Below, piece by piece: positions 41,795-61,428 of a DNA stretch of 64,000 nt. Both the position numbers and the translations under genes were made by a program. The DNA comes from an uncultured Chloroflexia bacterium (GTDB lineage: Bacteria; Chloroflexota; Anaerolineae; Promineifilales; Promineifilaceae): positions 226,268-290,267 of the forward strand of contig CAWAYB010000002.1 of NCBI GenBank assembly GCA_963786145.1. Direction: 5' to 3'. Position 1 is the first letter of the stretch, and each line of letters begins with the position of its first letter. Below the pieces are notes generated by a model, which had not been told where the DNA came from, did no database searches, and saw only the letters and a list, made by a program, of their open reading frames with translations.

Positions 41795-42154
41795 ATGGGC
41801 GAAGCACAAGCAGCGGGCATCATGGTTCTGCTATTTGCCTTGCGTTGTATCGTGCCCCTGGTTCTGATCTCAGGCATCGGCTATTTCACCAACAGGTTGG
41901 TTGACCATTGGGAAGCCGAGGCTGCTGAGGGCAAGAGTTCCTCTAAACAACGGCCGCCCGCAGTAGCTGCGCAAAGTAGCTTATCCTTGCCCTGTTGGCT
42001 GGTACGCAACTGCGATCCGGCCACACGCAGCAGTTGTGCGGCAGCGCGCGAAACTTCTAAACCGTGCTGGGTCGCCCGCACCGCGCAGGAAGGGGCTTTA
42101 CCAACAGGCTGCAGCGCTTGTCCCATTTACAATGGGCAGCAGCTCGCCATTTAG
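41795..42154 (+). CDS. Small membrane-anchored protein with 6-Cys C-terminal domain (two PCW motifs, terminal CxxCP)
   Basis: GGGAG lies 7 nt before the ATG. TM helix GIMVLLFALRCIVPLVLISGIGYF, then NRLVDHWEAEAAEG. C-terminus: PCWLVRNCDPATRSSCAAARETSKPCWVARTAQEGALPTGCSACPIY. The N-terminus is paralogous to 45954..46136. Confidence 0.5.
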   Translation: MGEAQAAGIMVLLFALRCIVPLVLISGIGYFTNRLVDHWEAEAAEGKSSSKQRPPAVAAQSSLSLPCWLVRNCDPATRSSCAAARETSKPCWVARTAQEGALPTGCSACPIYNGQQLAI

Positions 42155-42271
42155 TTCAGGTTTGCACAGCGAGTGAAAGGTCCATCCAACCACAACTAGC
42201 TCGCTGTTGGTTCCAGTCGCAATTGGACCTTACTCCGGGGCCACCCGCAGCGGTCCAATCTGAGCCACGTT

Positions 42272-42316
42272 GACCAGGCATCCCGTGTCCTCTGGGTGCC
42301 TGGTCCTTCCTTTTGG
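42272..42316 (+). terminator. Intrinsic terminator-like hairpin after the small Cys-rich gene
   Basis: 9-bp stem GACCAGGCA/TGCCTGGTC (42272-42280 / 42297-42305) followed by CTTCCTTTTGG. Confidence 0.5.
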
Positions 42317-42498: not shown

Positions 42499-43767
42499 CT
42501 AGTCGCCGCTCGCAGCGTACCTAGGCTGCGGCAGGGCGATTTGTTCAGACTCTTCGGCCTCGGAGGCGGGAAAGCCATGGTCCACTACTTTAAGGTAGCG
42601 TACACCCAGGGTAAACATCAACAGGCCGTAGGCAACGACCCCTGCTCCGGCAGCCATCTCAATTCGCGAGGGAGAATAACTCGTATAGGCGGGGATGGTT
42701 CCCTGCATCAGATTATTGAGGACCACCAGTTGGCCGACAAGGTTCGTATTCCAGCGATAGGCAACAACCCCACCTACCACCAGGAACAGCGCGAGAACTT
42801 GGAGGCGGTCATGGCGGCGCAAACGGCCGCTGAGCAAGATCACCATCGGCACTACAATACCCAGCAAGATCTCACCACCCCAGAAGTGAAAAGCAAAGGC
42901 GCCGTGCGTCAACATCTCGAGCGCCTCGCTGCGTCCCGGGAGATAGGTGTATTCTGTGGCCAGGAAGTCCCAAACCCGTAGATAGAGATAAATGACCAAC
43001 GCCCAACCAAGGTAGTGCGCCACGGTATCGAGCAGCGAGGGGTTGACATTCGCTCTTTTGCTGGCGCGACCGGCCACTCTGGAGGCAAACACTGTCAGTG
43101 CCAGGCCACCCACGATGGCTGAAGCCATGAACAGGATCGCCAGACTTGGCTTGAACCAGAACGGCCGTGCCTTCAAAATTCCGTACGTGGCGCCCAGCGA
43201 TGACTGGTGCAGCATTGAGAACGTGAGGCCTGCCAAAGCCAGGAAAGGAGCCAATTTGTGCAGGCCGCCAAGCCTATGTCCCAATTTCGGCCAGCGCCCC
43301 TGGATCAGCGAAGACTCCCCTACAATCGGCGTCACTTCCAGGATCAGGACCGTGAAGTATAGGGCAACGCACATTGTGACTTCCCACAGAGGCGAGTGAA
43401 TGTTCCAGTAGACCATGCCGTGCCAGAAGCGATCCGGACGGCCGATATCGAGCAGCAAGGTCATGACCGCCATGCTGTAGCCAATCAGGCCGATGAACAC
43501 GGCCGTGCGCGCCACCGGCTGCAGCCTCTTCAGCCCCAGCAGATATACCGCCGCCGACAGTAGAAAAGCCCCGGCGCTGAGCGCGATACTGGACAGATCA
43601 ATCGAGATCCAAAGTCCCCACGGCACCAAATCGGTGAGATTCGTCACCACAAGACCCTGCGTGAAAACAGTGTATGCAGCGCCCAACCCAAGGACAATCA
43701 CAACCGAAAGGCCCAGCACCCACCAGAAAAAGGAATGCCGCAAAAACTCTAAACGGCCGCTGTTCAT
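42499..43767 (-). CDS. NrfD/PsrC-family polytopic membrane quinol-interacting subunit (module 1)
   Basis: About 422 aa and ~10 TM helices. Family-typical N-terminus (LVVTNLTDLVPWGLWISIDLSSIALSAGAF...DIGRPDRFWH). The ATG overlaps the upstream stop (ATGA). Confidence 0.85.
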   Translation of the reverse strand: MNSGRLEFLRHSFFWWVLGLSVVIVLGLGAAYTVFTQGLVVTNLTDLVPWGLWISIDLSSIALSAGAFLLSAAVYLLGLKRLQPVARTAVFIGLIGYSMAVMTLLLDIGRPDRFWHGMVYWNIHSPLWEVTMCVALYFTVLILEVTPIVGESSLIQGRWPKLGHRLGGLHKLAPFLALAGLTFSMLHQSSLGATYGILKARPFWFKPSLAILFMASAIVGGLALTVFASRVAGRASKRANVNPSLLDTVAHYLGWALVIYLYLRVWDFLATEYTYLPGRSEALEMLTHGAFAFHFWGGEILLGIVVPMVILLSGRLRRHDRLQVLALFLVVGGVVAYRWNTNLVGQLVVLNNLMQGTIPAYTSYSPSRIEMAAGAGVVAYGLLMFTLGVRYLKVVDHGFPASEAEESEQIALPQPRYAASGD

Positions 43768-44558
43768 GCGCAACCCTCCTCGCCGACATGTTGTGCCGGC
43801 AGATAGTAGATACGTGGTTCTGTGCCCAGGTCTTCCCGCAGGCGGAAAGATGGGTTCGCCGCCAGCAGCTGACTGACCTCAGAGTTAGGATTATTAAGGT
43901 CACCAAAAACGCGAGCTTTCTTGGTGCAGGCCACCACACAAGCCGGCGTTGCGGCCTGGTCAACACCGGGCGACAGCCCAAACGAAAGGCCGCGGTCGAT
44001 ACGCTGTACACAGAAGGTGCATTTTTCCACAACGCCTCTTGGCCGGCGCGGAACTTCCGGCTGACCCCAGGCGGGAACTGCAGGATTTTGGCCTTCAAAC
44101 GCCTGCCAGTTAAAAGAGCGCGCGCCATAAGGGCAGGCAATCTCGCAGTAACGGCAGCCGATGCAGCGCTCATAATCCATCGTCACGATACCGTCGCTGC
44201 GCTGGGCACTTGCGCCAACAGGGCAGACATGCACACACGGAGCATCGGCACAGTGCATACATTGCACCGGTAGATAGATCTCCTGACCGTTAATGGGCTG
44301 CGCTTTTTGTACCCGCGTCCAGGCGATGTCTGGCGAAACATCATTGTTTGCCTGGCATGCCAGCGTACATTGTTCACATCCGATACATTTCGACTGGTCG
44401 ATGACCATTGCCCAGCGATGGGTGCTTCGTGCTTCTTCAAGTGGGTCCGCTTCCACAGGCGTATCTTTTTGCGTCCAGGCCACACCTACCGTGGCGCTGG
44501 CCAAGCCTACGGCGCTAAGCTTCAGAAAGGAGCGGCGATCCAGAGTGCTGCTGTTCAT
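43764..44558 (-). CDS. Tat-exported 4x[4Fe-4S] ferredoxin subunit, NrfC/PsrB/DmsB family (module 1)
   Basis: Twin-arginine signal DRRSFLKLSAVGLA. Cys clusters CIGCEQCTLAC, CMHCADAPCVHVCP, CIGCRYCEIACP and CTFCVQR...CVVAC. Confidence 0.9.
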   Translation of the reverse strand: MNSSTLDRRSFLKLSAVGLASATVGVAWTQKDTPVEADPLEEARSTHRWAMVIDQSKCIGCEQCTLACQANNDVSPDIAWTRVQKAQPINGQEIYLPVQCMHCADAPCVHVCPVGASAQRSDGIVTMDYERCIGCRYCEIACPYGARSFNWQAFEGQNPAVPAWGQPEVPRRPRGVVEKCTFCVQRIDRGLSFGLSPGVDQAATPACVVACTKKARVFGDLNNPNSEVSQLLAANPSFRLREDLGTEPRIYYLPAQHVGEEGCA

Positions 44559-45480
44559 TTACTTGTCCTCCCTGCGGCGGCGGTACAGGTTCTCCGCAAA
44601 CGGCGCGATCACCACACCAAACATCAGGCCGATTGCGGCCGGCAGGAAATAGACCAGGGGATTGGCCTGCTGAGGCTCTGCCTCAATAGGCTGCTCCGGA
44701 GCCACCGTGGCCCGTACCATGTCGGTCCGGTAGCAGGCGACATCCTTGCTGGGCGCGAGACCTGCCTCCTGTTCCAGCGCCGCATGCATGTCGCCTTCGT
44801 GACACTGGTTACATGTTTGGAGGTCCACCTTGAAGCTGTGGCTGCGCGAGCCATGACCTTCACCGAGCGCGCCATCCTCCACGGTCAGGTGACAGTCAGT
44901 GCAAAGCAAGCCCCTCCTTGGCGTGTCCCGTAAAGGAGAAGAAGTGGGATTGATCCTGGTGGCACTGCTGGCAAAGGGCCTGCGCACTTTCGACACGCAG
45001 GTCGGCCGTATGCGGGTTGTGGCATTGGCTGCAGGCCATATCCTCGGAAGCGTGATGGCTGTCCTGCCACTCGCTGAATGTCTCCGTATGGCAGCTTCCG
45101 CACAGCCGCGAGGAAACATCTGTGGGCATATAGTTGTCCGGATGGTCATCCATCACGGGATAGTGACAGGCCACACAATCTACGCCTTCGGCGAGATACT
45201 CTCCTGTCGCTGCGTCATAACCGCTGGTGTGGCATGCCAGGCACTCAGCAGGTTGACCCTGCTCTTGCCAAGCAGCCTGAAACACCGGATCGGACAGTGC
45301 CTGGGAGTGCGCGCCATGCTCCCAATAATCGCGCAGCCCTTCGTGGCACCCAATGCATTCGTCTGAATCGCCCTCGGTAGGAGCATCCTGACGCGGCGGT
45401 GCCGCTTGCGCCACCGCCACTATGCTGACTAGCAGAAACGAACATATGAACCCTGCCAGGACTCGTTTCGCTATCTCCAT
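44559..45480 (-). pseudogene. Octahaem cytochrome c with C-terminal TM anchor (module 1), frame broken by an apparent 1-nt insertion in a G4 run (44911-44914)
   Basis: ATG at 45480 follows GAGGAGG. Six CxxCH lie in ORF 44896..45546 up to ...GHAKEG. Two more (CTDCH, CNQCH) and the TM helix lie in ORF 44559..45149. Deleting one G restores AKEGLLCTDCH, which aligns with the paralog 54837..55913. Confidence 0.8.
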
Positions 45481-45530
45481 TTGTACCTCCTCTTTGGTGA
45501 AGGTTATACCAATTACCTTCTGGACCAATT

Positions 45531-45545
45531 CCTGGTGAGCACCCA
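45531..45545. repeat. Copy A of an exact 15-nt direct repeat CCTGGTGAGCACCCA
   Basis: Identical 15-mer at 45909-45923, in the same intergenic region between divergent genes. Confidence 0.9.
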
Positions 45546-45908
45546 TCTCACAAGAATGAGGAAGCAGAACAGATATAGTGTAGCAAGACGGTCGTGTGGG
45601 GTAAATCAGGGATTGAGCCTATCCGTGGCTGGGGTCATGGCCCCTTCTTGGGCCACGTTTTGGGTAGCGCAGGCTGCAACCAGCCCAAAATTTGCCGGCC
45701 GGCCGTTCGCCTACCCACGCCCCCTGGGCGATATACCCCACTTCGTGGCCGAAAATCGACTTCTAGAGCTCGAATCATAGGCGCCGGTGGCTCGCGCCTT
45801 TCCGGCGATACCCCATAGAAGAATGGTTTCTTTACCCGATAGACCGGGGCAGACGGCCGTATTATGCTTTACTCAAGCAAATAAGTTTGAGGAAACGCAA
45901 TTGTTTGC

Positions 45909-45953: not shown

Positions 45954-46136
45954 ATGATGAGCATTTCAGCGGCAGCGGCAGTAGTAATATTTCTTTTTAT
46001 CTTGCGCTTTGCGATGCCTCTGGGAGTCGTGGGTGGCCTGTGTTACCTGCTTAATCGCACCTGTGACCGGTGGGACGCTGAGGCTGAAGAGGCCAGGCGC
46101 GCCCAACAGGCGCAGCAAAGTACTCTTCAGACGTAA
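45954..46136 (+). CDS. Small single-TM membrane protein, N-terminal paralog of 41795..42154 (lacks the Cys-rich tail)
   Basis: AGGGGA precedes the ATG. The sequence ...AAVVIFLFILRFAMPLGVVGGLCYLLNRTCDRWDAEAEEA aligns with ...GIMVLLFALRCIVPLVLISGIGYFTNRLVDHWEAEAAEG. Confidence 0.45.
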   Translation: MMSISAAAAVVIFLFILRFAMPLGVVGGLCYLLNRTCDRWDAEAEEARRAQQAQQSTLQT

Positions 46137-46235: not shown

Positions 46236-48473
46236 CTAGCTTTCCGGCGCAGCAATCTCAGCCCGTGTCATACCCGCTGTGCTGCCACCAATGTTGGCCA
46301 GCGAGTCGTACAGTAGTTGTAACACGTAGTCTGCGTTATGCGCAAAAGCGCCAGGGTCCTTGGCTGTGTACTGGTAGTTGTAGGCGGCACGAAGCAATTT
46401 GGGCGTCCAGGTATTGAAACCATTTTCGCGATTGACCTCATCCGCGTCTGCAACACCGTCACCGTTCAGGTCTGTGAAGAAGTACGGGTAAGCCGACGGC
46501 GACCAGATGATGCCGCTACCAACCGTGTTAACGGCATAGGCCTGCATCGCCGCGTACAATGCTTCACGCATCGTATCCACTTCGCCGGCAATACCTTCTT
46601 CTACATCACCGTCACCGTCATAGTCGACCTCGCTCACACGAATGCTCGTCAGGTCATCCTTGACTTCGACACCCTCATGGCAATCACCGCATTCTTCAAC
46701 TACAACTTCCAACTCGTGAACGCTGTGACATTCGGTGCAGGTGTCAAACCCAGGCACGTGCTCGTTGCGACCGCTGTATTCCTGCCCGTCATACTGGTAT
46801 CCACCCTGCGCCTCGCTCCCGAAGAGCGTCGCGCCGGCGGCAAAGTAGTGGACATTCAGGAAACGCAGCGCATCTGATTGCTCATCGTCCGTCAACTCGC
46901 CAATCAAGCGATTCACGCTGACGGTAGATTCACGTCCTTGATGGCAGTTGATGCAAAGATTGCTGCCCGGATCGTCAAGCGAAAGCATAGCGCCGCTGGG
47001 GAACTGTACCTGCTCAAACTCGTAGATGGAGTAATCTTCCAAGTTGCTGTGACAGGTGGCACAGTTCAAACCGTTGGCCGGATGCTGTGAGATGGCTACG
47101 CCTTCCGTTGCATACAACGGCAGGCCGGCAGCGGAGTGGCACTTGCTGCAAGAGCCGGGCACCATTCCATCCTCATCCCAATGACGGAACGCCTCTTCTG
47201 AACCGGCGAAATGACCATGATCGATGCGTCTGGCATTGGTCAGATCAATCGGTTCAGCAATCGCTCCATTCAGATCCTCAATGGAGTCATAGAGCAGCTG
47301 GATGATATACTTTCCGCCATGCGCGAACCGGCCCGGATCCTTCAGCGATACCTGGAAGTTGTAAGCCGCTTTTGTCAGGCGCGGTGACCAGGCATTGTAC
47401 GCATTATCGAAGACAGCCTCATCCTCACCGGCTTCACCGTCCCCATTCCCGTCAATGAAGAAATAGGGATAGCTGGCCGCGTTATAGGCGATCGGCGTTC
47501 CGGTCACTTCTGTGGCATAGGCCTGCATTGCTGCATACAGCATGTCACGCATGCCTTCTATCTCGTAGTAGATACCTTCTTCGATGTCCCCGTCACCGTC
47601 ATAGTCAACGAGGGAGCCATTCATGCGCACGTCCACGAAATCGTCGACGGTTTCTACGCCTTCATGGCAGGATTGGCAATCTGCTACTTGGACTTCCAGC
47701 GTGTGCGGATCGTGGCAGGAATTACAGGTGTTGAACCCTTCCACATGGTCAAAACGGGCATCGTAGGACTTGCCGTCATATTCGAAGCCACCTTTGGCCA
47801 ACGTTCCATATTGCGTCGCTGCCGCAGCATAGTAGTGGATATTGGAGAATCCAAGATCCTCACTTACGGCATCAGGCGAATCGACCATGCCGGCCTCTTC
47901 GATTTTGGCGTTGACGCTGACCGTCGATTCCCGGCCCTGATGGCACTGCATGCAGCGGGCCTCAGCCCCAAGACCGGTGAGTTCAATACCGGAGGGCATG
48001 ACCACGCTGGTCATATTGAAGGTGCCTTCGTTATGGCAGGCTTCGCAGGTAACCGTGGTGCCGATGGGGGCGGGATTATCTACAACACCCGCTTCTGTGC
48101 CGTCAGCACCTACATAGTCCAGATATCCAGGCGTGCTGTGGCACTTGGCACAGGACGTGGGAACTTCTGCAGGATCGTCTTCGTTCCAATGGACAAATGC
48201 TTCCGCTTCGGCGTCATTGTGCGGGGATGCTGCCCATTGTTCCTCGAACGGGACCACATCCACGGCCGTTTCCGGCTCCATCATCACTTCTACGACACGC
48301 GTCACCTCAACCTGCACCTCCGGCCCAGGTACTTGAACCTCGGCGCCCGGTATTTCTACGACACGCGTCACTTCGACGGTCTGCGGTTCTTGGCTGCATG
48401 CCACTACCACAAGACTTAATAGTAGCAGCGTGCCCAAGAGCAGGAAATACCGTCTCTTCGGACAACACTTCAT
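46236..48473 (-). CDS. Decahaem cytochrome c lipoprotein with internal duplication (2 x pentahaem unit)
   Basis: AGGAGG RBS; lipobox LVVVAC. Ten CxxCH motifs: CAKCH, CEACH, CMQCH, CNSCH, CQSCH / CSKCH, CATCH, CINCH, CTECH, CGDCH. Each half also carries DYDGDGD(I/V)EEGI and QLLYDS motifs. Confidence 0.85.
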   Translation of the reverse strand: MKCCPKRRYFLLLGTLLLLSLVVVACSQEPQTVEVTRVVEIPGAEVQVPGPEVQVEVTRVVEVMMEPETAVDVVPFEEQWAASPHNDAEAEAFVHWNEDDPAEVPTSCAKCHSTPGYLDYVGADGTEAGVVDNPAPIGTTVTCEACHNEGTFNMTSVVMPSGIELTGLGAEARCMQCHQGRESTVSVNAKIEEAGMVDSPDAVSEDLGFSNIHYYAAAATQYGTLAKGGFEYDGKSYDARFDHVEGFNTCNSCHDPHTLEVQVADCQSCHEGVETVDDFVDVRMNGSLVDYDGDGDIEEGIYYEIEGMRDMLYAAMQAYATEVTGTPIAYNAASYPYFFIDGNGDGEAGEDEAVFDNAYNAWSPRLTKAAYNFQVSLKDPGRFAHGGKYIIQLLYDSIEDLNGAIAEPIDLTNARRIDHGHFAGSEEAFRHWDEDGMVPGSCSKCHSAAGLPLYATEGVAISQHPANGLNCATCHSNLEDYSIYEFEQVQFPSGAMLSLDDPGSNLCINCHQGRESTVSVNRLIGELTDDEQSDALRFLNVHYFAAGATLFGSEAQGGYQYDGQEYSGRNEHVPGFDTCTECHSVHELEVVVEECGDCHEGVEVKDDLTSIRVSEVDYDGDGDVEEGIAGEVDTMREALYAAMQAYAVNTVGSGIIWSPSAYPYFFTDLNGDGVADADEVNRENGFNTWTPKLLRAAYNYQYTAKDPGAFAHNADYVLQLLYDSLANIGGSTAGMTRAEIAAPES

Positions 48474-48566: not shown

Positions 48567-49433
48567 CTACGGTAACGGTGTTCGTGTCACCGGTACGAAA
48601 ACTTCTCGGGTAACAGCAGGCAGTGTAGTAATGGCCGTCTCCTCAAACGTGAAAAGGTAGACCAGCACCGCAAAAATCACCGTGCCCAGCACCGCGCTCA
48701 CGATCAAGAAGTTGCGTTGTCTGTGCCCGGGCGCATCCAAAGCTGCCCCAGGAAACGGATCGCCGCCAGCCTCCAGCCGTTCCAACTCCAAGGCGTGTTC
48801 CTCTTCCATCTGGTCACGCGGCAGCGAACCAGTCCACATGCTGGGGTTGAAATTCTTAATTAATACATTGTACAGGTGCCAAATAACAATGGACACGGCC
48901 GCCAGGATCGCCTCGCCGCCATGTGCCGCCTTCGCTGCCGGGATAAACTGCCCGGGCAAGAAATTGGTCACAGCGATCGGGTTCCAAAGCATGAACCCGG
49001 TCACGATCATCACGCCGGTGCCCCACACCACCGCCCAATACTCGAACTTCTCGCCGAAATTGAACTTGGGCATCCTGGGGTGGTGCGCCACCAGGCCCAA
49101 ATTATACCCCACCCAATTCTTTAGATCGATAGCATCCTGCCACGTGGGCAATACACGCATCCGCTCCCGCTTGACGTACAGACGATAGGCGGAGGTAAAC
49201 AGATGATACACCGTACCCAATACCAGGAAAAACGCGGAATAACGGTGTACGATGCGGACCGTTTCAATACCGCCCATGGCATTGATCATGCTCTGTGAAA
49301 TATCCGCAGCCGCATATTTCTGGGGGATGCCCGTGATACACAGCAGGGTAAAACTCAGCAGCAGGATGATATGCTCGATCCGCGCCATGAGGCGGAAGCG
49401 CGGGAATTGTTGTTGCTCTTCAACGGAGTTCAC
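48567..49433 (-). CDS. Membrane di-haem cytochrome b, FdnI/HydC (Ni/Fe-hydrogenase b-type cytochrome) family
   Basis: 288-aa ORF. Family-typical ARIEHIILLLSFTLLCITG...RIVHRYSAFF...KFNFGEKFEYWAVVWG...HGGEAILAAVSIVIWHLY, with 4-5 TM helices. Confidence 0.8.
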   Translation of the reverse strand: MNSVEEQQQFPRFRLMARIEHIILLLSFTLLCITGIPQKYAAADISQSMINAMGGIETVRIVHRYSAFFLVLGTVYHLFTSAYRLYVKRERMRVLPTWQDAIDLKNWVGYNLGLVAHHPRMPKFNFGEKFEYWAVVWGTGVMIVTGFMLWNPIAVTNFLPGQFIPAAKAAHGGEAILAAVSIVIWHLYNVLIKNFNPSMWTGSLPRDQMEEEHALELERLEAGGDPFPGAALDAPGHRQRNFLIVSAVLGTVIFAVLVYLFTFEETAITTLPAVTREVFVPVTRTPLP

Positions 49434-52791: not shown

Positions 52792-54024
52792 TTAATGCTC
52801 TTTGGTGCCAGTCGCATAGGGGAACAATGGCAGGTGCCGTACTCCGAGGGTAAAGGCCAGCAGTGCATATCCCGCAATACCCACACTCACCGCTACCTCT
52901 ACCAGTGAAGGAGAATAGCTGAGTACAATGATGTTCCCGAGGATGCCCGGTGACCAGCTTGGTGGCACAACCAGGCCAGAAAGGGTCACATTCCAGCGAT
53001 TCACGACCAGGCCAACTACGGCCAATCCCAGACCAAGAATTAGCGCCCGGTCATTGCGGCGCAGCGGCGGGTACAGAAAGATGAACGCCGGGATAATTGC
53101 GCCCAGAAATACCTCTACGAACCAGAAAGTGCGAGTATAAGGCGTCGTCAACTGCAGGCGTAGAAATGCATCGGCCGTGCCCGGCGTGTGGCTATAATAG
53201 GAAGTTGCCGCCCAATCCCACAGTTTTAAGTAGAGGTAAGCGAGCATCGCATAGCCGGAGAACCGGGCGATGCGCCACTTCAGCTCGTCACTAATCAGAT
53301 CTTTGTGGGTGAACTTTCCCGCCACAAGGGTGAGGAACAACGTCAGCGCAGTCCCCGCCGCAACGGCCGACATGATAAACATCACCGGCATGGAGGGTTT
53401 GTACCAGATCTCGCGCCCCGTCAACACCCCGTAGGTCGCCCCCAGAGATGATTGGTGCAGTAGGGACAGGGATAAGCCGACAACCGCGAAAGCCGGCGTC
53501 AGCCTGTGCAGGTAGTCACCAACAACCCGCAGCTGCGGCCAGCGATCAAAATACTTGCTGTCCAAGAGGATGGGTAAGAACTCCAGGAACAAGATCGTGG
53601 AATACAGGATGACACACCATGTGATCTCCCACAACACCGAATGGACGTTCCAATAGACCAGTGGATGCCAGAAGCGATCCGGCCGCCCAATGTCCATCGC
53701 CAGAGCAATCATTGCCGAGGTATAGCCAATGAAACCTACGAATACGGCCGCACGCGCGATCTCACGAAATTGGGTGAACTTGAACAGATAAGCAATGGCG
53801 GAAAAGGTAAACGCCCCGGCTCCCAGGCCGATGGCTGAAAGATCATGCGTAATCCACAGCCCCCAGGGAACCTGGTCGGTGAGGTTCGTAACCTGCAAGC
53901 CGTGCAGCAGGGTCTGGATTGCCCCCCAGATGCCAATCGCAATGAGGATAGCTAGCAGACCGTACCACATGGTGATCGGCGCAATGATTCTCCGTTCTTC
54001 GGCCGTTATTTGTCCAGCAGACAT
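52792..54024 (-). CDS. NrfD/PsrC-family polytopic membrane subunit (module 2)
   Basis: Start at MSAGQI (ATG at 54024, behind GGAGGAAG, 1 nt after the upstream stop). LQVTNLTDQVPWGLWITHDLSAIGLGAGAF...DIGRPDRFWH is paralogous to module 1. Confidence 0.85.
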   Translation of the reverse strand: MSAGQITAEERRIIAPITMWYGLLAILIAIGIWGAIQTLLHGLQVTNLTDQVPWGLWITHDLSAIGLGAGAFTFSAIAYLFKFTQFREIARAAVFVGFIGYTSAMIALAMDIGRPDRFWHPLVYWNVHSVLWEITWCVILYSTILFLEFLPILLDSKYFDRWPQLRVVGDYLHRLTPAFAVVGLSLSLLHQSSLGATYGVLTGREIWYKPSMPVMFIMSAVAAGTALTLFLTLVAGKFTHKDLISDELKWRIARFSGYAMLAYLYLKLWDWAATSYYSHTPGTADAFLRLQLTTPYTRTFWFVEVFLGAIIPAFIFLYPPLRRNDRALILGLGLAVVGLVVNRWNVTLSGLVVPPSWSPGILGNIIVLSYSPSLVEVAVSVGIAGYALLAFTLGVRHLPLFPYATGTKEH

Positions 54025-54025
54025 A

Positions 54026-54850
54026 TCAGACTTCCTCCAACGCTGGCCGTACATAATGGACTTTGGGCTGCGTGCCAAAATCCTCGCGCAACACAAAGGT
54101 GTCGTTATCTTCCAGGAAGCGCGAAATCGGGCTTTCCACATCGTTAAAGTCCCCAAAAACGCGCGCGCCGACCGGGCAGATGTTGACGCAAGCCGGTGTT
54201 ACCTGTGGATCGACCCCAGGCTTGAGGCCGTACTCCACAGCCCGGTCAATACGCTGCACGCAAAAGGTACATTTTTCAACCACACCACGCGGCCGCCGTT
54301 CCACTTCGGGCGTGCCCCAGGTCGGAACATATTCGTTTTCTTCTGTGCTTTGCTTCCAGTTAAAACGGCGTACGTCGTATGGGCAGGCAACCTCGCAATA
54401 GCGGCAGCCGATGCAGCGATCATAGTCCATCGCCACCAGCCCGTCTTCGCGCACCCAGGTTGCACCTACGGGGCACACTTTGACACACGGCGCTTCCTGG
54501 CAGTGCAGACACGGCCGTGTCATGAAGAAATCTGTCGCGTTCTCCGTGCGCTCGTCAAACCCGACATTCCAGCGCATATCGTCTTCCGGCACATCATTGA
54601 CAGCCTGGCAAGCCCACAGGCAATATTGGCAGCCGATGCACTTGGACAAATCAATGCCCATATGCCATTGATTGGCCGAACTCGCCTCCGTCTCGCGTGA
54701 CAAACCCTCGATCGCCTCGGCCGACAACGGTCCGCCGGAGAAAAGCTGTGAGACAACCACGGCCGCGCCGGTCACCCCGGCGATCTTCAGAACATCGCGA
54801 CGGCTCAGAAGCGCGGTGCCATCCTTTTTCTCCCCATCACCTTTCGTCAT
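54026..54850 (-). CDS. Tat-exported 4x[4Fe-4S] ferredoxin subunit, NrfC/PsrB family (module 2)
   Basis: Twin-arginine signal LLSRRDVLKIAGVTGAAVV. Cys clusters CIGCQYCLWAC, CLHCQEAPCVKVCP, CIGCRYCEVACP and CTFCVQR...CVNICP. Confidence 0.9.
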   Translation of the reverse strand: MTKGDGEKKDGTALLSRRDVLKIAGVTGAAVVVSQLFSGGPLSAEAIEGLSRETEASSANQWHMGIDLSKCIGCQYCLWACQAVNDVPEDDMRWNVGFDERTENATDFFMTRPCLHCQEAPCVKVCPVGATWVREDGLVAMDYDRCIGCRYCEVACPYDVRRFNWKQSTEENEYVPTWGTPEVERRPRGVVEKCTFCVQRIDRAVEYGLKPGVDPQVTPACVNICPVGARVFGDFNDVESPISRFLEDNDTFVLREDFGTQPKVHYVRPALEEV

Positions 54851-55913
54851 CGTGCTCTTCCTCTTCTGCCGCGACCGCTTCGGCATCCGCTTCCTGGCGG
54901 CGGCTCCGGCTGTTGTTGGCTACAATCCAGGCGGTCGATCCTCCCAGGACGAGACCAATGAGGCCTCCCTGGAACAGCAGTGTGGCGTTCTGGCTGGCTA
55001 GCGCGGATTCCAGGGCTTGAATCTGCTGTTGAGGTGACAGGCCGGTTTCTTTTTCAATCTGTTCCACAACAGGCATGTCTTCACTCGCTGCAGCGCTTTC
55101 GTTGCTTACGCTTTGTACGGTGCTGGCCCCACCCTCGTATCCGGGCAAGGAAAAGCCGGCATGCAAGGCATCGGTATGGCAAGCCACACATGTCTTCGGC
55201 GTAATCGTAAAAGCATGCCCCGTGGGTACGATTCCATCCGCCGGGGGAGTCTCGGGTGGGATCACCAGCGCATGGCAATCAACACAGCCAATATCCTTCG
55301 TGTGATGCGTATCTTCCAGGTACGCATCCATGGATTCGCCATGACAATTAATACACATGTCATCCGGATTCTCGAACAGAGCCTGTTGGCTGTGCGGATC
55401 ATGGCAGGCCGAGCAGCCGATGGTTTCCGTGGCGTGCCCGGTAAGCCGCCATTCCCCCAGAGTCGTGGTGTGGCACGTGCCGCAGTACTCGGTATCGGCC
55501 AGGATCGGCACCGGCGCCGACGGGTGGTCCGTCGCTACCTGGCCGTGGCAACCCTCACAGCTGATGCCTTCGGCGTCATATTCACCGGTGGACTGCACGT
55601 AGTTCGTGGTGTGGCAGGCCAGGCACTCTCCTGGCTCGCCCATACCCAGCCAACGCTCCTGAAACACCGGATCGCTGTACGCATTGGCGTGAGGGCTTGG
55701 CTCCCAATGACTGGAAACATCGAGGTGACAGTCCTGACACTCCTGCGTCGTATAGTACTCAACCTCGACAGCACCTTCGGGAACGGGTTCATCGTCCTGT
55801 CGTGAGTCCGCAGCGGCGGCAATCTGTACCGTTAACATCAGACTCACCAGCCCAACTGCAAGTCCTGCAAGAATGGCTCGTATGTAGGGCTGTAAGCGCG
55901 TTTTGTTACTCAT
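54837..55913 (-). CDS. Octahaem cytochrome c with C-terminal TM anchor (module 2, intact paralog)
   Basis: Start at MSNKTRL. Eight CxxCH motifs: CQDCH, CLACH, CEGCH, CGTCH, CSACH, CINCH, CVDCH, CVACH. C-terminal helix LLFQGGLIGLVLGGSTAWIVA and an acidic tail. Confidence 0.85.
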   Translation of the reverse strand: MSNKTRLQPYIRAILAGLAVGLVSLMLTVQIAAAADSRQDDEPVPEGAVEVEYYTTQECQDCHLDVSSHWEPSPHANAYSDPVFQERWLGMGEPGECLACHTTNYVQSTGEYDAEGISCEGCHGQVATDHPSAPVPILADTEYCGTCHTTTLGEWRLTGHATETIGCSACHDPHSQQALFENPDDMCINCHGESMDAYLEDTHHTKDIGCVDCHALVIPPETPPADGIVPTGHAFTITPKTCVACHTDALHAGFSLPGYEGGASTVQSVSNESAAASEDMPVVEQIEKETGLSPQQQIQALESALASQNATLLFQGGLIGLVLGGSTAWIVANNSRSRRQEADAEAVAAEEEEHDDER

Positions 55914-55988
55914 AACTCTCTCGCAGTGAGATACCTCTTGTGACACGCACCGGTATATCCAGGCGCCCGTCTCCTTGCCAAACTTTGC

Positions 55989-56933
55989 TCATGGTGAAGG
56001 AAGCGCATTCCGTTTCAGGGCCGCATTTGCTTCCTGCTGTGCAATCTCTCGGGCAATAAACTCCCAGAACGCTTCCTGAGCACCCGTTGCCGGCTTGCGC
56101 TTCTGGTAGCCGATGTGAATGTCGCGATAGATGTCGAGGCCACGGACGTTCACATGAGCTACACGGCCGTCGACCAACCTGGACACCACAATTTGAGAGA
56201 CGAAGCCAACCCCCAAACCCTCCTTCACAGAGAGTGCAATTGCCTCCGAACTTCCCAGAATGAGCATGGTGTCTAGATCTTCGATGTCCAGGCCAACGCT
56301 GGTCAGCCCCCTGCGCACCGCTGATTCAGTTCCCGAGCCTTCTTCTCTGAAAATGAATTCAGCCTCCAACAGTTCCGCTGGCTCAATTTCACCCCGGTCT
56401 GCCCACGGGTGATCTGCCGGAGCAATGAGAATTACCGGGTCAATCGTGAACCGGCGCGTCTCAACCGAGTTGCAGATCATGAACGGCTCACTGACCATCG
56501 CGATATGAACCTCGCCATCACACAGCATTTCAAATGCTTGCCCCTGCGAAGTCACGTTACACGATACACGCACCAACGGGAATTGACGGTGAAAACTGGC
56601 CAACAGCTGTGGCAAGATATATTTGCCTGGTGTCGTACTGCACCCCACTAACAAATGCCCGTGCACTTCGCCTTCCAGAGATTTCATCGTTTCCACAATT
56701 TGCACCGATCGCTCCACCATATCGCGCGCCAGGGGTAGCAGTGCCATTCCTGCTTCGGTCAGTTCCATATGCCGGCCCGAACGGTTAAACAGAGTCTGCC
56801 CGAGATTGAGCTCGAGAGACTGGATGTGCTGGCTTACGCTGGGCTGACTCATATGGAGCAGGCGCGCTGCCTGCGTGAAATTCAAGGTTTCCGCGGCGAC
56901 AAGAAACACATTAAGCTGGTGGGTATCTAACAT
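55989..56933 (-). CDS. LysR-family transcriptional regulator
   Basis: Start at MLDTHQLNVFLVAAETLNFTQAARLLHMSQPSVSQHIQSLE (classic LysR HTH), followed by a substrate-binding domain. Confidence 0.85.
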   Translation of the reverse strand: MLDTHQLNVFLVAAETLNFTQAARLLHMSQPSVSQHIQSLELNLGQTLFNRSGRHMELTEAGMALLPLARDMVERSVQIVETMKSLEGEVHGHLLVGCSTTPGKYILPQLLASFHRQFPLVRVSCNVTSQGQAFEMLCDGEVHIAMVSEPFMICNSVETRRFTIDPVILIAPADHPWADRGEIEPAELLEAEFIFREEGSGTESAVRRGLTSVGLDIEDLDTMLILGSSEAIALSVKEGLGVGFVSQIVVSRLVDGRVAHVNVRGLDIYRDIHIGYQKRKPATGAQEAFWEFIAREIAQQEANAALKRNALPSP

Positions 56934-57062
56934 GGTCGACCTCTTGTTTGTGAATATTGTAACAAAATCTATTATCAACTCAATAGTCTAGGTATCAAGT
57001 TTAATTGCTTTTCCTTATGGAGACCAAGAAGCAAAAGCTATAAGTAAAACCTTGTTTTGTAA

Positions 57063-57169: not shown

Positions 57170-58735
57170 TTGAAGCGAATATCTAGAAATCAGGGGGGGC
57201 TCTCTCGCTTGGCCCTCTGCTGCGGGGTGTTTGCCCTGGCGTGGCTGGCAGCTGGCTGCAGGGGCACAGGATCTGCGCCGGACACAGCCGTCGCCGGCGC
57301 CCCTCTGCTCGAACCAACGGCCGCCGGCGCCACGGCCACCAGGGAAGCAACGCCGGAACCAAAACCCACGGCCATGATTGCCGCCGCAGGCCCAGATACC
57401 TGCACTGACTGCCACACCGACAAGGACCTTCTGATTGATACTGCTGATCCGGTGGAGGAGGTAGTGAGCGAAAACGAAGGCGAAGGTTGAGGTGGTGAGG
57501 TGGCTCCGTTGGAGCCATGGGAAAAAGTACTCGTAGACGGCGAACTCTATCCGCCAACCGTTCATGGCCAGATCCCCTGCGCCGACTGCCATGCCGGCGA
57601 CCAAACAGCGACAGACAAGGCCGTTGCCCACGAAGGGTTAGTCGACAACCCCAGCAACGACCCCGACGCAACCTGTGGCGAGTGTCACCCTAACGTCGTG
57701 GCGATGAATGAATACAGCCTGCATACGAGCCTGCAGGGCTATTGGACCGTGCTCGATCAACGGGTCATACCTGAAGATCACGAGCAAGTCGAAACGATGT
57801 TCGGCAACCACTGCAACTCCTGCCATTCCAGTTGTGGCGAATGCCATGTCAGCCAACCCAATCTTGTCGGCGGTGGCCTGATCGAAGGACACCTCTTCAA
57901 TGAAACGCCTTCCATGACCCGTAACTGCACTGCCTGCCACGGCAGCCGCGTGGGCAACGAATACCTTGGCAAGCACGAAGATCTGCGCCCGGACGTTCAT
58001 TTCCGCCAGGGGCGCATGAGCTGCGTTGACTGCCACTCCGGCCATGAAATGCACGGTCAACCTGCCAATTGCGAGGAATGCCATACAGGTCCGGAAGCGC
58101 AAAGCGTGCCCCCCGCCGATCACCGTTACAGCGGCGTTCAGTCGCCACGCTGTGAAACATGCCATGTTCAGGTTGCTCTTGGTGACGATGGCATCGAGAT
58201 GCACGAGCAGCACTCCGGTGATTTATCTTGCCAGGTGTGCCATTCCATCGCCTATACCAGCTGTGACGGCTGCCACGTAGCCATCAGCGAGACCACTGGC
58301 AATGCGTTCTACGCCACGGACGGTTCCTACTTAGACTTCAAGATCGGCAAGAACCCGCTGCGCAGTTTTGACCGGCCGTATGAATATGTCACACTGCGCC
58401 ACGTCCCGGTTTCCACGGATGCCTTCGACTTCTACGGTGAAGCGCTGCAGAAGAATTTCGACGCGCTGCCGACGTGGACCTACACCACTCCGCATAACAT
58501 TCAACTCGAGACACCGCAGACGGAAAGCTGCGAAGCGTGCCACGAGAATCCTGATCTGTTCCTCACGGCCGATAAAGTGGCCGAGAACGAGCTGCAGGCC
58601 AACCTGCCCGTCATCGTCGAAAGGATCCCACCGCAAACTTTGCCAGAGGTCAGCATCGAACAATTGCTGGCCGATCCGACCACAGATATCCCTCCCGCCG
58701 AGGGTGATAGTGCTCCCGCGGAGAGTTCAAATTAG
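57170..58735 (+). CDS. Dodecahaem cytochrome c lipoprotein containing one in-frame TGA (57488-57490): selenocysteine recoding candidate, or a nonsense mutation
   Basis: TTG at 57170 follows AAGGAG; lipobox LAAGC. One CxxCH (CTDCH) lies before the TGA. After it, 11 CxxCH continue in the same frame (ORF 57500..58735), and that part has no signal peptide of its own. Confidence 0.65.
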
Positions 58736-58764
58736 GGTAAGCATACCCATTGAGGAGAAATGCA

Positions 58765-61428
58765 ATGAGAAAGTCTACTTTGTTCACGTTCATTCTGCTG
58801 TTGGGGCTGCTTCTTGCAGCCTGTGGCGGCTCCGCCGCCACAGCGCCGGATGCGGCTGCACCTGCGGCCACGGCCGTTGCGGAAGTTGTCGAAGAAGCTG
58901 TCGCTGAAGCAGAACCCGTCGTAGAAGAACCAGTAGTCGAGGAACCGGCGGCCGAGCCGGAAGCCGAAATGCCCGCCGAGACAGGCGCCGCTGATCTGGA
59001 TACCGCCTATGCAGCCTTCCTGGGCGGGATGGAAGCCTATAACACCATCGGCATTGACGAAGTCAACGAAATGATCGCCGAGGGCAACGCCCCCTTCTTG
59101 CTGGACGTCCGCGAACCCGGCGAACTGACCGAGAACGGCTGGATCGAAGGCGCGGTCAATATCCCGCTGCGTGAAGTCGCTAACAGCATCGCCTATTTGC
59201 CCAGCTTTGACACCCCCATTGTGAGCTATTGCGGCAGCGGTTGGCGCTGCACCATCGCCCTGACCGCGCTCGAAGCTCTGGGTTGGCAGGACGTGAAGGG
59301 TCTCAAAGGCGGCAGCTTCGGTGGCTGGGTGGAAGCCGGCTACCCGATCGCCGAAGGCGAAATCCCCACGCTCGTCGAACTCAACGCCGCCGAACCTGAT
59401 CCGGCTCTCCTAGCTGCTATGCAAGAAATGCTCAGCGAGGTACCGGAGGGCTTCGGCGTCATCACTGACGAACAGCTCGATACAGAGCTGGTAGAAAACC
59501 CTGATCTGATAGTCATCGACGTGCGGACCCCCGCAGAGGTCGAGGAGCAGGGCTATATGGACGCGCCCAATCTGCTGTTCATTCCTCTGGAAGAGTTTGT
59601 CGCCAGCCAGGATATGTGGCCCGCGGAAAAAGACGCGCCCATCGTGGTCTACTGTGGCAGCGGCCACCGTTCCACCATCGCCATGAGCATCCTCTGGTCC
59701 TATGGCTATACCGACGTACGCAGCCTCAAAGGTGGCTTTAGCGAATGGGCCGCCGCCGGCTACCCGTCCGTGGACGTTCCCGAAACGGCCGTGGGTGAAG
59801 GCAGCCCGCTGAATCCAGGTTTTGTCACATTCCTTGCGGGCATGGAAGCCTACAACACAATTGGTCTGGAAGACGTGAGCCTGGCACTTGCCGAAGACCC
59901 ACCCCCCTTCCTGCTTGACGTTCGTGAACCGGGCGAAATCGAAGAAAACGGTTATATCGAAGGCGCGGTCAACATTCCCCTGCGTCAGGTTGCCGACAAC
60001 ATCGCCTACCTGCCCAGCTTTGACACCCCCATTGTCAGCTACTGCGGCAGCGGTTGGCGCTGCACTATTGCCCTTACCATTCTTGAAGGCATGGGCTGGG
60101 AGAATGTGACCGGCCTTAAGGGCGGCAGCTTCGGTGGCTGGGTTGACGAAGGATACCCGGTGGCCGAAGGCCTGCCCCTGGAGCCAATGGAATTGAACGC
60201 GGCCGATCCCGATCCGGTACTCGTCGCCGCTGCCCAGGAAACGCTGAGCAACGTGCCCGACGGCTTCGGCGTCATTACCGTCGATGATCTCAACACTGCC
60301 ATTGTGGAAAACCCGGACTTGATCCTGATCGATGTGCGCACCCAGGAAGAAGTAGAGAAGAATGGCTATATCGATGCGCCAAATGTTCTCTTCATCCCTC
60401 TGGAGGAGTTCATTGCCGACCAGGACATGTGGCCCGCCGACAAAGACGCGCCGATCGTGACCTACTGTGGCAGCGGCCATCGCTCCACGATTGCCATGAC
60501 CATCCTCTGGGCCAACGGCTACAGCGACGTACGGAGCATGAAAGGCGGGTTCAACGAATGGACCGCCGCAGGCTATGCCACAGTGGGAGCGCCTGAAGCC
60601 GGGGAGACCGAGACAGCTTCTGCCCCCGTCGATCTGGACGCCGCCTTCGCCACTTTCCTGGCCGATATGGAAGTGTATAACACGATTGGCCTGGAAGATC
60701 TGAACCTGGCCCTGATCGAAGACCCGCCGCCGTTCCTGCTTGATGTGCGCGAGCCAGCGGAACTGGAAGAAAACGGGTACATCGAAGGCGCGGTCAACAT
60801 TCCATTACGTGAGGTTGCCGACAATATCGCTTACTTGCCCAGCTTTGATACGCCCATCGTAAGTTACTGTGGCAGCGGCTGGCGCTGCACCATCGCCCTT
60901 ACAGCCCTCGAAGCGATGGGTTGGCAGGATGTTAAGGGTCTGAAGGGCGGCAGCTTCGGCGGCTGGGTCGAAGAAGGGTACCCCTTCGTGGAAGGCCTGC
61001 CGTTGGAGCCGGTTGAACTGAATGCGGCCGATCCTGACCCGGCCCTTGTAGCCGCCATGCGGGAAATGCTGCAAAACGTTCCTGACGGTTTTGGTGGAAT
61101 TTCCGCCGATGATCTGAATCTGGCCATCATCGAAAACCCTGACTTGATCGTAATCGATGTGCGCACCGATGAGGAAGTGGCCGAAGACGGCATCATCGAA
61201 GCCGAAAACTGGATTCACATTCCTTTGGAATCCTTCATCGAGGAGATGGACCAATGGCCGGCTGACAAAGATGCTTCTATCGTCATCTATTGTGGCAGCG
61301 GACATCGTTCCACGATCGCCATGAGTATCCTATGGTCCTACGGCTACACGGATGTGAGCAGCCTGAAGGGTGGTTTCAGCGCCTGGGAAGCCGCCAGCTA
61401 CCCCGTTGCTGAATTCGCAGCTCCGTAA
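58765..61428 (+). CDS. Lipoprotein with six rhodanese domains (three tandem two-domain units)
   Basis: ATG at 58765 follows GAGGAG; lipobox LLAAC. Active-site loops CGSGWRC (x3) alternate with CGSGHRS (x3). Confidence 0.85.
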   Translation: MRKSTLFTFILLLGLLLAACGGSAATAPDAAAPAATAVAEVVEEAVAEAEPVVEEPVVEEPAAEPEAEMPAETGAADLDTAYAAFLGGMEAYNTIGIDEVNEMIAEGNAPFLLDVREPGELTENGWIEGAVNIPLREVANSIAYLPSFDTPIVSYCGSGWRCTIALTALEALGWQDVKGLKGGSFGGWVEAGYPIAEGEIPTLVELNAAEPDPALLAAMQEMLSEVPEGFGVITDEQLDTELVENPDLIVIDVRTPAEVEEQGYMDAPNLLFIPLEEFVASQDMWPAEKDAPIVVYCGSGHRSTIAMSILWSYGYTDVRSLKGGFSEWAAAGYPSVDVPETAVGEGSPLNPGFVTFLAGMEAYNTIGLEDVSLALAEDPPPFLLDVREPGEIEENGYIEGAVNIPLRQVADNIAYLPSFDTPIVSYCGSGWRCTIALTILEGMGWENVTGLKGGSFGGWVDEGYPVAEGLPLEPMELNAADPDPVLVAAAQETLSNVPDGFGVITVDDLNTAIVENPDLILIDVRTQEEVEKNGYIDAPNVLFIPLEEFIADQDMWPADKDAPIVTYCGSGHRSTIAMTILWANGYSDVRSMKGGFNEWTAAGYATVGAPEAGETETASAPVDLDAAFATFLADMEVYNTIGLEDLNLALIEDPPPFLLDVREPAELEENGYIEGAVNIPLREVADNIAYLPSFDTPIVSYCGSGWRCTIALTALEAMGWQDVKGLKGGSFGGWVEEGYPFVEGLPLEPVELNAADPDPALVAAMREMLQNVPDGFGGISADDLNLAIIENPDLIVIDVRTDEEVAEDGIIEAENWIHIPLESFIEEMDQWPADKDASIVIYCGSGHRSTIAMSILWSYGYTDVSSLKGGFSAWEAASYPVAEFAAP
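58990..61428 (+). repeat. Tandem triplication (~815-bp unit) inside the rhodanese gene
   Basis: Units start near 58990, 59810 and 60628. The protein repeats align almost residue for residue (AYNTIG...FLLDVREPGE...NIPLR(E/Q)VA(N/D)(S/N)IAYLPSFDTPIVSYCGSGWRCTIALT...). Confidence 0.85.

Follow-up and report, generated by a model that had tools for sequence, protein, structure and literature searches.

The DNA analysed here is a 64-kb stretch of contig CAWAYB010000002.1 from an uncultured Chloroflexia bacterium (Chloroflexota, Anaerolineae, Promineifilaceae; the window below). It carries an island of multihaem cytochrome genes, in which 60 CxxCH motifs were counted within about 3,038 residues in our own translation of the open reading frames (ORFs), compared with 2 motifs in the 12,714 residues of all other plausible proteins of the window. 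The island is proposed to be made of two respiratory units located on the outside of the cytoplasmic membrane: unit 1 (52792-61428), which includes a dodecahaem cytochrome c predicted to be a selenoprotein and a six-rhodanese lipoprotein, and unit 2 (38925-52514), a set of further anchored cytochromes with a two-component regulatory system. The coordinates of all features are collected in Table 1.

A first-pass annotation of the window had listed these genes, and each of them was recovered where it had been placed by the ORF list, translation, and Pfam. In particular, the two octahaem-NrfC-NrfD modules (A and C) each possess an NrfD subunit of family PF03916 and an NrfC-type subunit with a Tat signal, and CxxCH counting, Pfam, and hydrophobicity bore out the collagen-stalk octahaem lipoprotein, the anchored 14-haem protein, the cytochrome b, the decahaem, the six-rhodanese lipoprotein, and the NarL-type system. 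The total of 60 motifs is right; their assignment to six proteins requires reading through a one-base frameshift in octahaem A and an in-frame TGA in the dodecahaem gene, both of which had been passed over without comment. Over the island and its flank Pfam gave two NrfD proteins, two Tat-signal NrfC-type Fe-S proteins, an FdnI/HydC-type cytochrome b, a collagen repeat, six rhodanese domains, and, among regulators, a HisKA_3 kinase with a GerE-type regulator and a LysR protein, which lies inside the island and not at its edge as had been claimed. CcmF was found upstream of the island and NCBIfam added CcmE, both at about 5.4 kb, in good agreement with the ccm operon previously put at some 5 kb. 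No Pfam match to molybdopterin, sirohaem, NrfA, or beta-barrel/porin families occurred in the island or in the rest of the window, as the first-pass annotation had noted, and the remaining large ORFs were by Pfam only housekeeping genes and gyrA. Hairpins do bound the operon that had been described as flanked by terminators; the consensus scan as a whole stayed at the shuffled level (19 sites versus 18.7 in shuffled sequence).

The dodecahaem gene has one CxxCH motif upstream of an in-frame UGA and 11 downstream, and the predicted selenocysteine (Sec) lies 25 residues past haem 1. The TGA stands at the identical codon in the window and in 13 other loci (L008, L026, L069-L074, L081-L085), 14 in all, the proteins of these 13 loci being 43-99 % identical; the orthologues in L026 and L008 are interrupted at exactly the same place (EGEG*GGEVAPLEPWEK), and in L074 the TGA is likewise present, followed by a 1-nt indel. 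Genome-wide reassignment of TGA was ruled out, as it is the normal stop of 11 of the 30 ordinary window genes. The 411-residue part downstream of the UGA has neither a hydrophobic segment nor a signal peptide; lacking an export signal of its own, it would have its 11 haem sites matured only if translated in one piece with the N-terminal lipoprotein signal.

Among 1.84 billion cluster representatives searched, 490 were dodecahaem relatives (139 at E <= 1e-30). Among the closest 120 database homologues 106 start immediately past the TGA codon and are, judging by the sequences, truncated gene calls; the 14 full-length homologues have Cys (3), Arg (4), Leu (2), and in the rest Trp, Ile, Met, His, or Ser at the Sec site. 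The Cys-type entries P0207, P0232, and P0235 read GCGG there, and of the representatives at 50 % identity that span the site 47 begin just past it and 14 carry Cys in C-G-G. Most database entries of the family are truncated "hypothetical proteins" beginning right behind the UGA, and surveys hence under-count both haem content and the selenoproteome. Truncated entries (P0129, P0156, P0157, P0159, and others) bear the JGI label "thiosulfate/3-mercaptopyruvate sulfurtransferase", probably carried over from the neighbouring rhodanese gene. As a separate observation, in L087 (JGI Ga0597090_0017955, 1767-6250) a Sec-type dodecahaem gene stands back to back with a full-length Arg-type paralogue, each with its own LysR gene, which from the sequence looks like a duplication followed by Sec loss in one copy.

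Just downstream of the UGA a hairpin resembling a selenocysteine insertion sequence (SECIS) was found, with a stem of 8 bp and GU in the loop, for which Rfam gave no match. In nine sequences the third positions of codons +4 to +8 show an identity of 1.0, compared with about 0.2-0.5 at other equally invariant residues, and 96.6 % of the helix cells counted over 11 distinct sequences are paired. Two pairs show compensatory double changes (GC<->CG and GC->AU): pair 16-28 undergoes the GC<->CG switch in five sequences and pair 15-29 is AU once and GU once, with UG once at pair 19-25. The covariation score was reached by none of 500 shuffles and was about zero in slid controls. The GC<->CG switch alters two amino acids jointly, Ala-Pro becoming Pro-Ala or Pro-Val, a change that selection on the protein would not be expected to produce.

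Three marks of a bacterial selenoprotein, namely a conserved in-frame UGA, a covarying downstream stem-loop, and homologues with Cys at the Sec position, are thus all present, and because of the conserved TGA, the hairpin, the Cys orthologues, and the missing downstream signal peptide the dodecahaem protein is very probably a selenoprotein with a U/C-G-G motif. Were the TGA a true stop or the lesion of a pseudogene, only a monohaem lipoprotein of about 14 kDa would be made and the downstream ORF would be separate or dead. Gene callers and NCBI do annotate the downstream part as a separate hypothetical protein, and the octahaem A frameshift provides a second lesion in the window; but a true stop fails the conservation test (the same TGA in 14 loci, down to 43 % protein identity), and the covarying hairpin, Cys orthologues with the same synteny, and a downstream part not exportable alone make this explanation hardly credible.

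The identity of the predicted selenoprotein was sought in several collections. No NCBIfam family model matches it, and it is not a member of ExtKL/MccSep, the multihaem selenoprotein of Geobacter sulfurreducens: the model NF040886 gave no match to the full-length protein at E <= 0.01, there are 12 CxxCH motifs, and the Sec is placed close behind haem 1. The ExtM model scored 18.7 bits against a cutoff of 800, and the ExtM, GSU2204, UshA-like, and octahaem tetrathionate reductase (OTR) selenoprotein models were rejected on no or trivial matches. PDB searches with the single sequence and with a profile returned generic haem-motif matches only (best E = 8.8e-5 over about 100 residues). In a 2026 review, the table of prokaryotic selenoprotein families lists ExtKL, the GSU2204 family, UshA-like proteins, and the octahaem tetrathionate reductase type; it holds no family resembling the dodecahaem and does not mention Chloroflexi. 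No Chloroflexota Sec cytochrome turned up in the literature searched, and the protein appears to be unannotated as a selenoprotein in these sources. Elsewhere in Chloroflexota Sec use is documented in Dehalococcoidia.

The alignment of 121 sequences contains no conserved Cys outside CxxCH and 12 conserved extra His, and the arrangement known from MccSep, a His/Cys haem combined with Sec, is therefore absent. The Sec (or Cys) in its Gly-flanked loop is accordingly, on the alignment, the sole candidate chalcogen nucleophile of the protein. The first-pass annotation had seen no recognisable catalytic subunit in the island; the dodecahaem with its conserved Sec/Cys-Gly-Gly is the likely one.

In unit 1 the partners of the dodecahaem are constant. 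The module C octahaem gene always adjoins the Sec-dodecahaem operon (L026, L070, L073, L074, L081, L082, L083, L086), and, wherever a locus extends far enough to reveal it, the Sec or Cys dodecahaem is followed by a multi-rhodanese gene. The rhodanese lipoprotein consists of three copies of a two-domain unit, which are 72 % identical, and the active-site loop CGSG[W/H]R with its catalytic Cys is intact in all six domains; on its six PF00581 domains and six-residue catalytic-Cys loops the product is assigned to the rhodanese sulfurtransferase family. For the LysR protein the best NCBIfam match is "selenium metabolism-associated LysR" (NF040786, 226.7 bits). Modules A and C are paralogous, with identities of 36, 51, and 45 % for the octahaem, NrfC, and NrfD subunits, respectively. 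PF03916 covers profile positions 2-311 of 313 in both NrfD subunits (E = 4.5e-33 in module A and 2e-33 in module C), and by this nearly full-length match both are placed in the NrfD/PsrC family of membrane quinone subunits; in NCBIfam the best match of either is QrcD (227 bits for module A and 264 bits for module C, against a cutoff of 570).

In unit 2 the decahaem lipoprotein is a tandem duplication of a pentahaem OcwA/NrfA-like module, the halves being 48 % identical. Its AlphaFold2 model (pLDDT 78.8) had as top Foldseek match, a weak one (prob 1.00, E = 0.013, TM 0.33, 14 % identity), the protein OcwA (PDB 6i5b), the "outer cell wall cytochrome" at the cell surface of Thermincola potens and part of its Gram-positive multihaem relay; NrfA-type enzymes followed in the ranking. 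Some decahaem homologues are fused to Big_2-type domains, which fits a predicted surface location. Residues 30-65 or so, a linker past the lipobox, contain a duplicated near-invariant motif (VEVTRVVEV ... VEVTRVVEV) modelled with very low confidence, and this linker could be a wall-spanning or wall-binding segment.

The 14-haem protein, with hydrophobic segments at both ends, gave weak PDB sequence matches to 6r2q_A and 6i5b_A (OcwA). The adjacent cytochrome b, which resembles formate dehydrogenase gamma in NCBIfam below the cutoff, is presumed to be the quinol site of unit 2, and together the two resemble a split CbcL-like pair. The octahaem lipoprotein reaches the Pfam Collagen family by a narrow score (27.3 bits versus the cutoff of 27.2), and in all 12 complete orthologues 6-13 GXY triplets follow the lipidated Cys directly; on this uninterrupted Gly-X-Y repeat it qualifies as a bacterial collagen-like protein, and the sequence suggests that the segment is a trimeric stalk which would raise the haem domain off the membrane. 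In a full-text literature search no paper turned up that combines collagen-like repeats with a multihaem cytochrome.

The histidine kinase and response regulator flank unit 2; the kinase gene adjoins module A in L002, L008, L029, and L044, and response-regulator orthologues in syntenic loci are 70-78 % identical. Between module A and the two-component system lies a small membrane protein without Pfam or NCBIfam family, which has orthologues (38-53 % identity) in the same place in L001, L002, L008, L009, L029, L032, and L044 and may assist the seven-segment kinase as a sensor of redox state or metals. The second small membrane protein is indeed its paralogue, as had been claimed (36 % identity over 63 residues, E = 8.6e-9 in tblastn).

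A scan of species-representative genomes gave 68 loci, of which the closest (73-76 % identity) belong to Promineifilaceae metagenome-assembled genomes (MAGs) and the farther ones to Caldilineaceae, Anaerolineaceae, Acidimicrobiia, and other Actinomycetota. Decahaem relatives number more than 4,900 in the databases, the named ones being Chloroflexota (Candidatus Promineifilaceae, Ardenticatenaceae, Ca. Leptofilum, Anaerolineae). The island is common across uncultured Chloroflexota and is not confined to the source genome. Fragmented genes or matches were seen in long-contig MAG loci (L030, L031, L035, L040, L047, L061, L062, L068), which suggests homopolymer errors of long-read assembly rather than true pseudogenes.

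When all island proteins were placed on the related loci by tblastn, two independently conserved blocks appeared, adjacent only sometimes, which does not support the earlier view of the island as one system. The unit 1 order NrfD-NrfC-octahaem (module C)/LysR/dodecahaem/multi-rhodanese is kept in L026, L070, L073, L074, L082, and L083, and the Cys-type locus L086 has identical five-gene synteny. The unit 2 order collagen-octahaem/14-haem/cytochrome b/decahaem/octahaem-NrfC-NrfD (module A)/small membrane protein/response regulator and kinase is kept in L001, L002, L008, L009, L029, and L044. Unit 1 stands without unit 2 in L081, the 6.36-Mb contig of P0142 (NCBI name Candidatus Leptofilum sp.). 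In L082 (2235-4250), a 78 %-identical relative, the cytochrome b/14-haem pair is replaced by a NapC/NirT-type tetrahaem protein and a 474-residue cytochrome, with a Crp-family regulator; quinol dehydrogenase modules therefore appear to be swapped between relatives and interchangeable.

These data bear on the view that all genes of the island serve a single system of extracellular electron transfer to Fe(III)/Mn(IV) oxides or electrodes, in which the dodecahaem would be a wire and the rhodanese accessory or unrelated. Such a system would agree with the 60 haem motifs, the three quinone modules, the lipoprotein cytochromes, the OcwA-like decahaem, and the lack of a classical catalytic domain, as well as with the general assumption in the literature that Anaerolineae multihaem cytochromes serve extracellular electron transfer, and the decahaem gene adjoins unit 1 in the window, L026, L082, and L083. 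Yet a costly Sec kept, or swapped for Cys, at one fixed site indicates a reactive residue and not a wire, and with the constant rhodanese partner and the solitary unit 1 of L081 this view is judged quite improbable.

Table 1. Features of the cytochrome island and its flank (window positions; CxxCH motifs per protein in the fourth column).
Feature	Position	Strand	CxxCH	Basis and remarks
Sensor histidine kinase	38925..40997	+		HisKA_3/HATPase_c (Pfam); about 7 hydrophobic segments
NarL/GerE-type response regulator	40942..41640	+		Pfam Response_reg and GerE
Small membrane protein	41795..42154	+		One N-terminal hydrophobic segment; Cys-rich tail (CWLVRNC...C...CW...CSAC)
Module A NrfD-type quinone-interacting membrane subunit	42499..43773	-		PF03916
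Module A Tat-exported NrfC/DsrO-type poly-[4Fe-4S] subunit	43764..44558	-		Fer4_11 and TAT_signal; DsrO 232 bits versus 200
Module A octahaem cytochrome c	44559..45546	-	6+2	Frameshifted; likely start 45480
Second small membrane protein	45957..46130	+		Paralogue of 41795..42154 without Cys-rich tail
Terminator-like hairpin, bidirectional	46176-46209			Sequence and terminator scan; between small ORF and decahaem gene
Decahaem lipoprotein	46236..48473	-	10	Lipobox
FdnI/HydC-type cytochrome b (Ni_hydr_CYTB)	48567..49433	-		PF01292, E = 1.2e-12
14-haem cytochrome c	49436..51109	-	14	N- and C-terminal hydrophobic segments
Octahaem lipoprotein with collagen-like stalk	51222..52514	-	8	GXY repeat right after lipobox Cys
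Terminator-like hairpin	52720-52746			Sequence
Module C NrfD-type membrane subunit	52792..54024	-		PF03916; likely ATG 54024, mechanical ORF to 54156
Module C Tat-exported NrfC/DsrO-type Fe-S subunit	54026..54886	-		Pfam; NCBIfam DsrO 206 bits versus cutoff 200
Module C octahaem cytochrome c, C-terminal anchor	54837..55946	-	8	Likely start 55913
LysR regulator	55989..56978	-		Pfam; divergent from Sec-dodecahaem operon
Dodecahaem lipoprotein, predicted selenoprotein	57170..58735	+	1+11	TTG start, AAGGAG ribosome-binding site, LAAGC lipobox
In-frame TGA/UGA, predicted Sec in G-U-G-G	57488..57490	+
SECIS-like hairpin GUGGCUCC-GUU-GGAGCCAU	57500..57518	+		9 nt past UGA
Six-rhodanese lipoprotein	58750..61428	+		PF00581 x6, E = 7e-96; likely ATG 58765

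Elsewhere in the window three further observations were made. Just downstream of the ccm genes lies the gene of a 619-residue protein (30303-32162, minus strand), which accounts for the only CxxCH motifs outside the island by its two class-I cytochrome c domains and whose long C-terminal part matches no family. At 28503-29894 (plus strand) the regulator architecture is unusual, a GerE/LuxR helix-turn-helix domain being joined to a Kelch beta-propeller. No Pfam match at E <= 1e-5 was obtained for two large ORFs of 1,053 and 446 residues (18703-23271, minus strand), which have a LysM protein and a PMT_2 glycosyltransferase as neighbours and could encode envelope proteins.

Taken as a whole, we moderately favour the reading in which unit 1 is a menaquinol-linked reductase of polysulfide or sulfane sulfur (or selenite), situated beside an extracellular electron-transfer chain formed by unit 2. 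In unit 1 electrons would pass from menaquinol via NrfD, the Fe-S clusters of NrfC, and the anchored octahaem to the lipid-anchored dodecahaem, whose UGA at 57488 would be decoded as Sec with the aid of the hairpin at 57500-57518. The Sec, lying in its loop past haem 1, would act as a nucleophile or a haem ligand and would attack sulfane sulfur, either as polysulfide or as persulfide on the six rhodanese active-site Cys, selenite being a possible alternative substrate; the 12 haems would supply electrons, the Se-S adduct would be reduced, and sulfide would be released. The divergent LysR protein would control the dodecahaem-rhodanese operon. The fixed-site Sec together with the rhodanese partner makes sulfur or selenium respiration likely for this unit, and the respiration of sulfur or selenium compounds, which the first-pass annotation had offered as one alternative, thereby gains direct support from the Sec codon and its neighbour.

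For unit 2 extracellular electron transfer is the natural reading of the gene set. The cytochrome b/14-haem pair, as a split CbcL-like quinol oxidase, and module A would feed two lipoprotein cytochromes, and the stalked octahaem and the OcwA-like decahaem would conduct electrons across the wall to acceptors outside the cell, governed by the NarL-type two-component system. The decahaem may also serve sulfur respiration, because it often adjoins unit 1. Ardenticatena maritima, a Chloroflexi isolate, is described as monoderm, and the lack of a porin is therefore expected and no anomaly; the cytochromes studied in this organism do not represent the same island, as the largest of that strain has 7 haems. 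The idea of a porin-less chain of cytochromes from quinol to the surface, put forward in the first-pass annotation, fits with the Chloroflexota relatives, with this monoderm isolate, and with OcwA as best match of the decahaem. Unit 2 would thus be a concrete conserved candidate for crossing a porin-less envelope, and a porin-cytochrome conduit (MtrCAB, PCC, Ext) was rejected for the island on the absence of any beta-barrel/porin family by Pfam throughout the window.

Several points weigh against the proposed sulfur reductase and its neighbouring chain. With regard to selenocysteine, the 64-kb window holds no tRNA and by Pfam no Sec-machinery family, ARAGORN found no tRNA-Sec in 1.27 Mb of related loci, and some full-length relatives have R, L, W, I, M, H, or S at the Sec site, at least one of these being a paralogue that adjoins a Sec copy. 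With regard to catalysis, the 12 conserved non-motif His could, judging by the alignment, make all 12 haems bis-His; the haem-ligating Cys of MccSep has no counterpart in the dodecahaem family, which contains no conserved free Cys, and therefore the MccSep mechanism is not simply transferable; and AlphaFold2 modelled a Cys-type dodecahaem only poorly (pLDDT 63, pTM 0.48), with no fold match by Foldseek. The LysR score lies under the NF040786 cutoff of 250, and the OcwA match of the decahaem is weak. Octahaem A consists of two overlapping ORFs (44896-45546 and 44559-45149) with one extra base in a GGGG run (44911-44914; minus-strand GGGG); removal of one G restores an unbroken alignment to orthologues (GHAxEGLLCTDCH), and an assembly error is more likely than a very recent lesion. 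The NrfD subunits are most like QrcD, a quinone reductase, and therefore electrons might flow inward, i.e., with oxidation of sulfur compounds or Fe(II).

The inward direction leads to a serious rival, in which the rhodanese and the Sec-dodecahaem would, much like TsdA or SoxAX, oxidise thiosulfate, sulfide, or sulfane sulfur and the Qrc-like octahaem-NrfCD module would reduce menaquinone. The QrcD (menaquinone reductase subunit) match of NrfD and the DsrO score of NrfC above its cutoff speak for it; the MccSep authors regard their own mechanism as a possible reverse of TsdA/SoxAX chemistry (PMC13510729), and CbcL/MtoC-type modules are thought to be bidirectional. Nevertheless, the only characterised Sec multihaem enzyme, MccSep, is a reductase, no Sox, Dsr, or FCC genes were found by Pfam in the window, and the direction of electron flow is not fixed by sequence, so that oxidation is considered unlikely, though to be taken seriously, and reduction of sulfane sulfur remains the preferred reading of unit 1.

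The reductase reading may be carried further to a proposal that we regard as speculative and rather doubtful. The U/C-G-G residue would be either the distal axial ligand of a c-type haem, forming a natural His/Sec centre, or the sole chalcogen nucleophile beside a haem, and the dodecahaem would represent a second, independently evolved class of multihaem selenoenzymes: a lipid-anchored sulfane-sulfur/polysulfide reductase of monoderm Chloroflexota, fed by six rhodaneses and wired to menaquinol by its own octahaem-NrfCD module, with the OcwA-like decahaem allowing solid-sulfur respiration without an outer membrane. A chalcogen-reducing dodecahaem, unrelated in sequence to MccSep yet likewise partnered by a rhodanese, would mean that selenium, haem, and rhodanese came together for this task on more than one occasion. 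It would also extend such chemistry to Chloroflexota, a group common in sediments, soils, and activated sludge about whose anaerobic respiration little is understood.

Among known systems the Thermincola OcwA relay resembles the island in its use of membrane- and wall-associated multihaem cytochromes with no outer-membrane porin. The decahaem differs from OcwA by its tandem duplication, its 10 haems, and its lipid anchor, besides the weakness of the fold match, and to our knowledge nothing corresponding to the collagen-stalk octahaem or to the NrfCD modules has been described in Thermincola.

Modules A and C are built like Qrc, Hmc, and DsrMKJOP, with a multihaem cytochrome in the periplasm, an NrfC-like 4x[4Fe-4S] protein exported by the Tat system, and an NrfD-like subunit in the membrane, and Ohc and Nhc have the same NrfCD-plus-multihaem build. 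In both modules DsrO was matched above its cutoff and QrcD and HmcC were the best NrfD matches; however, the QrcD, HmcC, and DsrP scores are far under their cutoffs, neither QrcB nor DsrMK is present, and the cytochrome, with 8 haems, is itself anchored at the C-terminus. Identification as a Qrc complex was rejected on the QrcD scores given above, on QrcC (176 and 163 bits versus 400), and on the absence of a molybdopterin-like QrcB. PsrABC of Wolinella succinogenes likewise has a quinol-linked NrfD/NrfC-type module resembling that of unit 1, and in the same organism Sud, an exported rhodanese-like sulfur carrier, reportedly brings polysulfide sulfur to the Psr reductase. The catalytic subunit differs: in Psr it is a molybdopterin protein, whereas unit 1, with no molybdopterin domain in the window, would use a Sec multihaem cytochrome.

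The cytochrome b and the 14-haem protein of unit 2 recall CbcL, MtoC, and MtrH, in which a HydC/FdnI-type dihaem cytochrome b is the partner of a multihaem c domain. CbcL, MtoC, and MtrH are single fused polypeptides, whereas the unit 2 proteins are encoded by separate adjacent genes, and the pair was on this ground not counted as a member of that group. In a 2018 survey no CbcL homologue was recorded in Chloroflexi.

A characterised pathway with close homologues of the gene set, named in the first-pass annotation as grounds for refuting its interpretation, was not found, and the closest functional analogue is the Geobacter ExtH and MccSep pair. MccSep (ExtKL, GSU2937-2936) of Geobacter sulfurreducens is a selenoprotein with five haems whose annotation is divided between two ORFs. 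It is a polysulfide reductase that sulfur respiration requires, and it also reduces selenite; published in 2026, it is the only multihaem selenoenzyme characterised and is reported mainly from Desulfobacterota and Nitrospirota (PMC13510729). It has no detectable sequence relationship with the dodecahaem (neither NF040886 nor the PDB searches gave a family match), and the differences are considerable: 12 haems as against 5, a Sec near the N-terminus in G-U-G-G as against D-G-U-P in a C-terminal Ig-like domain, and a Chloroflexota host. In MccSep a strictly conserved Cys is the distal ligand of the active-site haem, which the dodecahaem family lacks in the 121 aligned sequences; the Ext cluster has the porin ExtI, whereas unit 1 is without a porin and, unlike the MccSep system, has a dedicated octahaem-NrfCD quinone module. 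In the extHIJKL cluster MccSep is encoded beside the rhodanese-family lipoprotein ExtH (PMC6148476), and the dodecahaem likewise has a rhodanese-family lipoprotein as its neighbour. Both are exported multihaem c proteins with one UGA-encoded Sec (predicted in the dodecahaem), a SECIS-like hairpin just downstream, and Cys-type relatives, and both were split into two ORFs by annotation.

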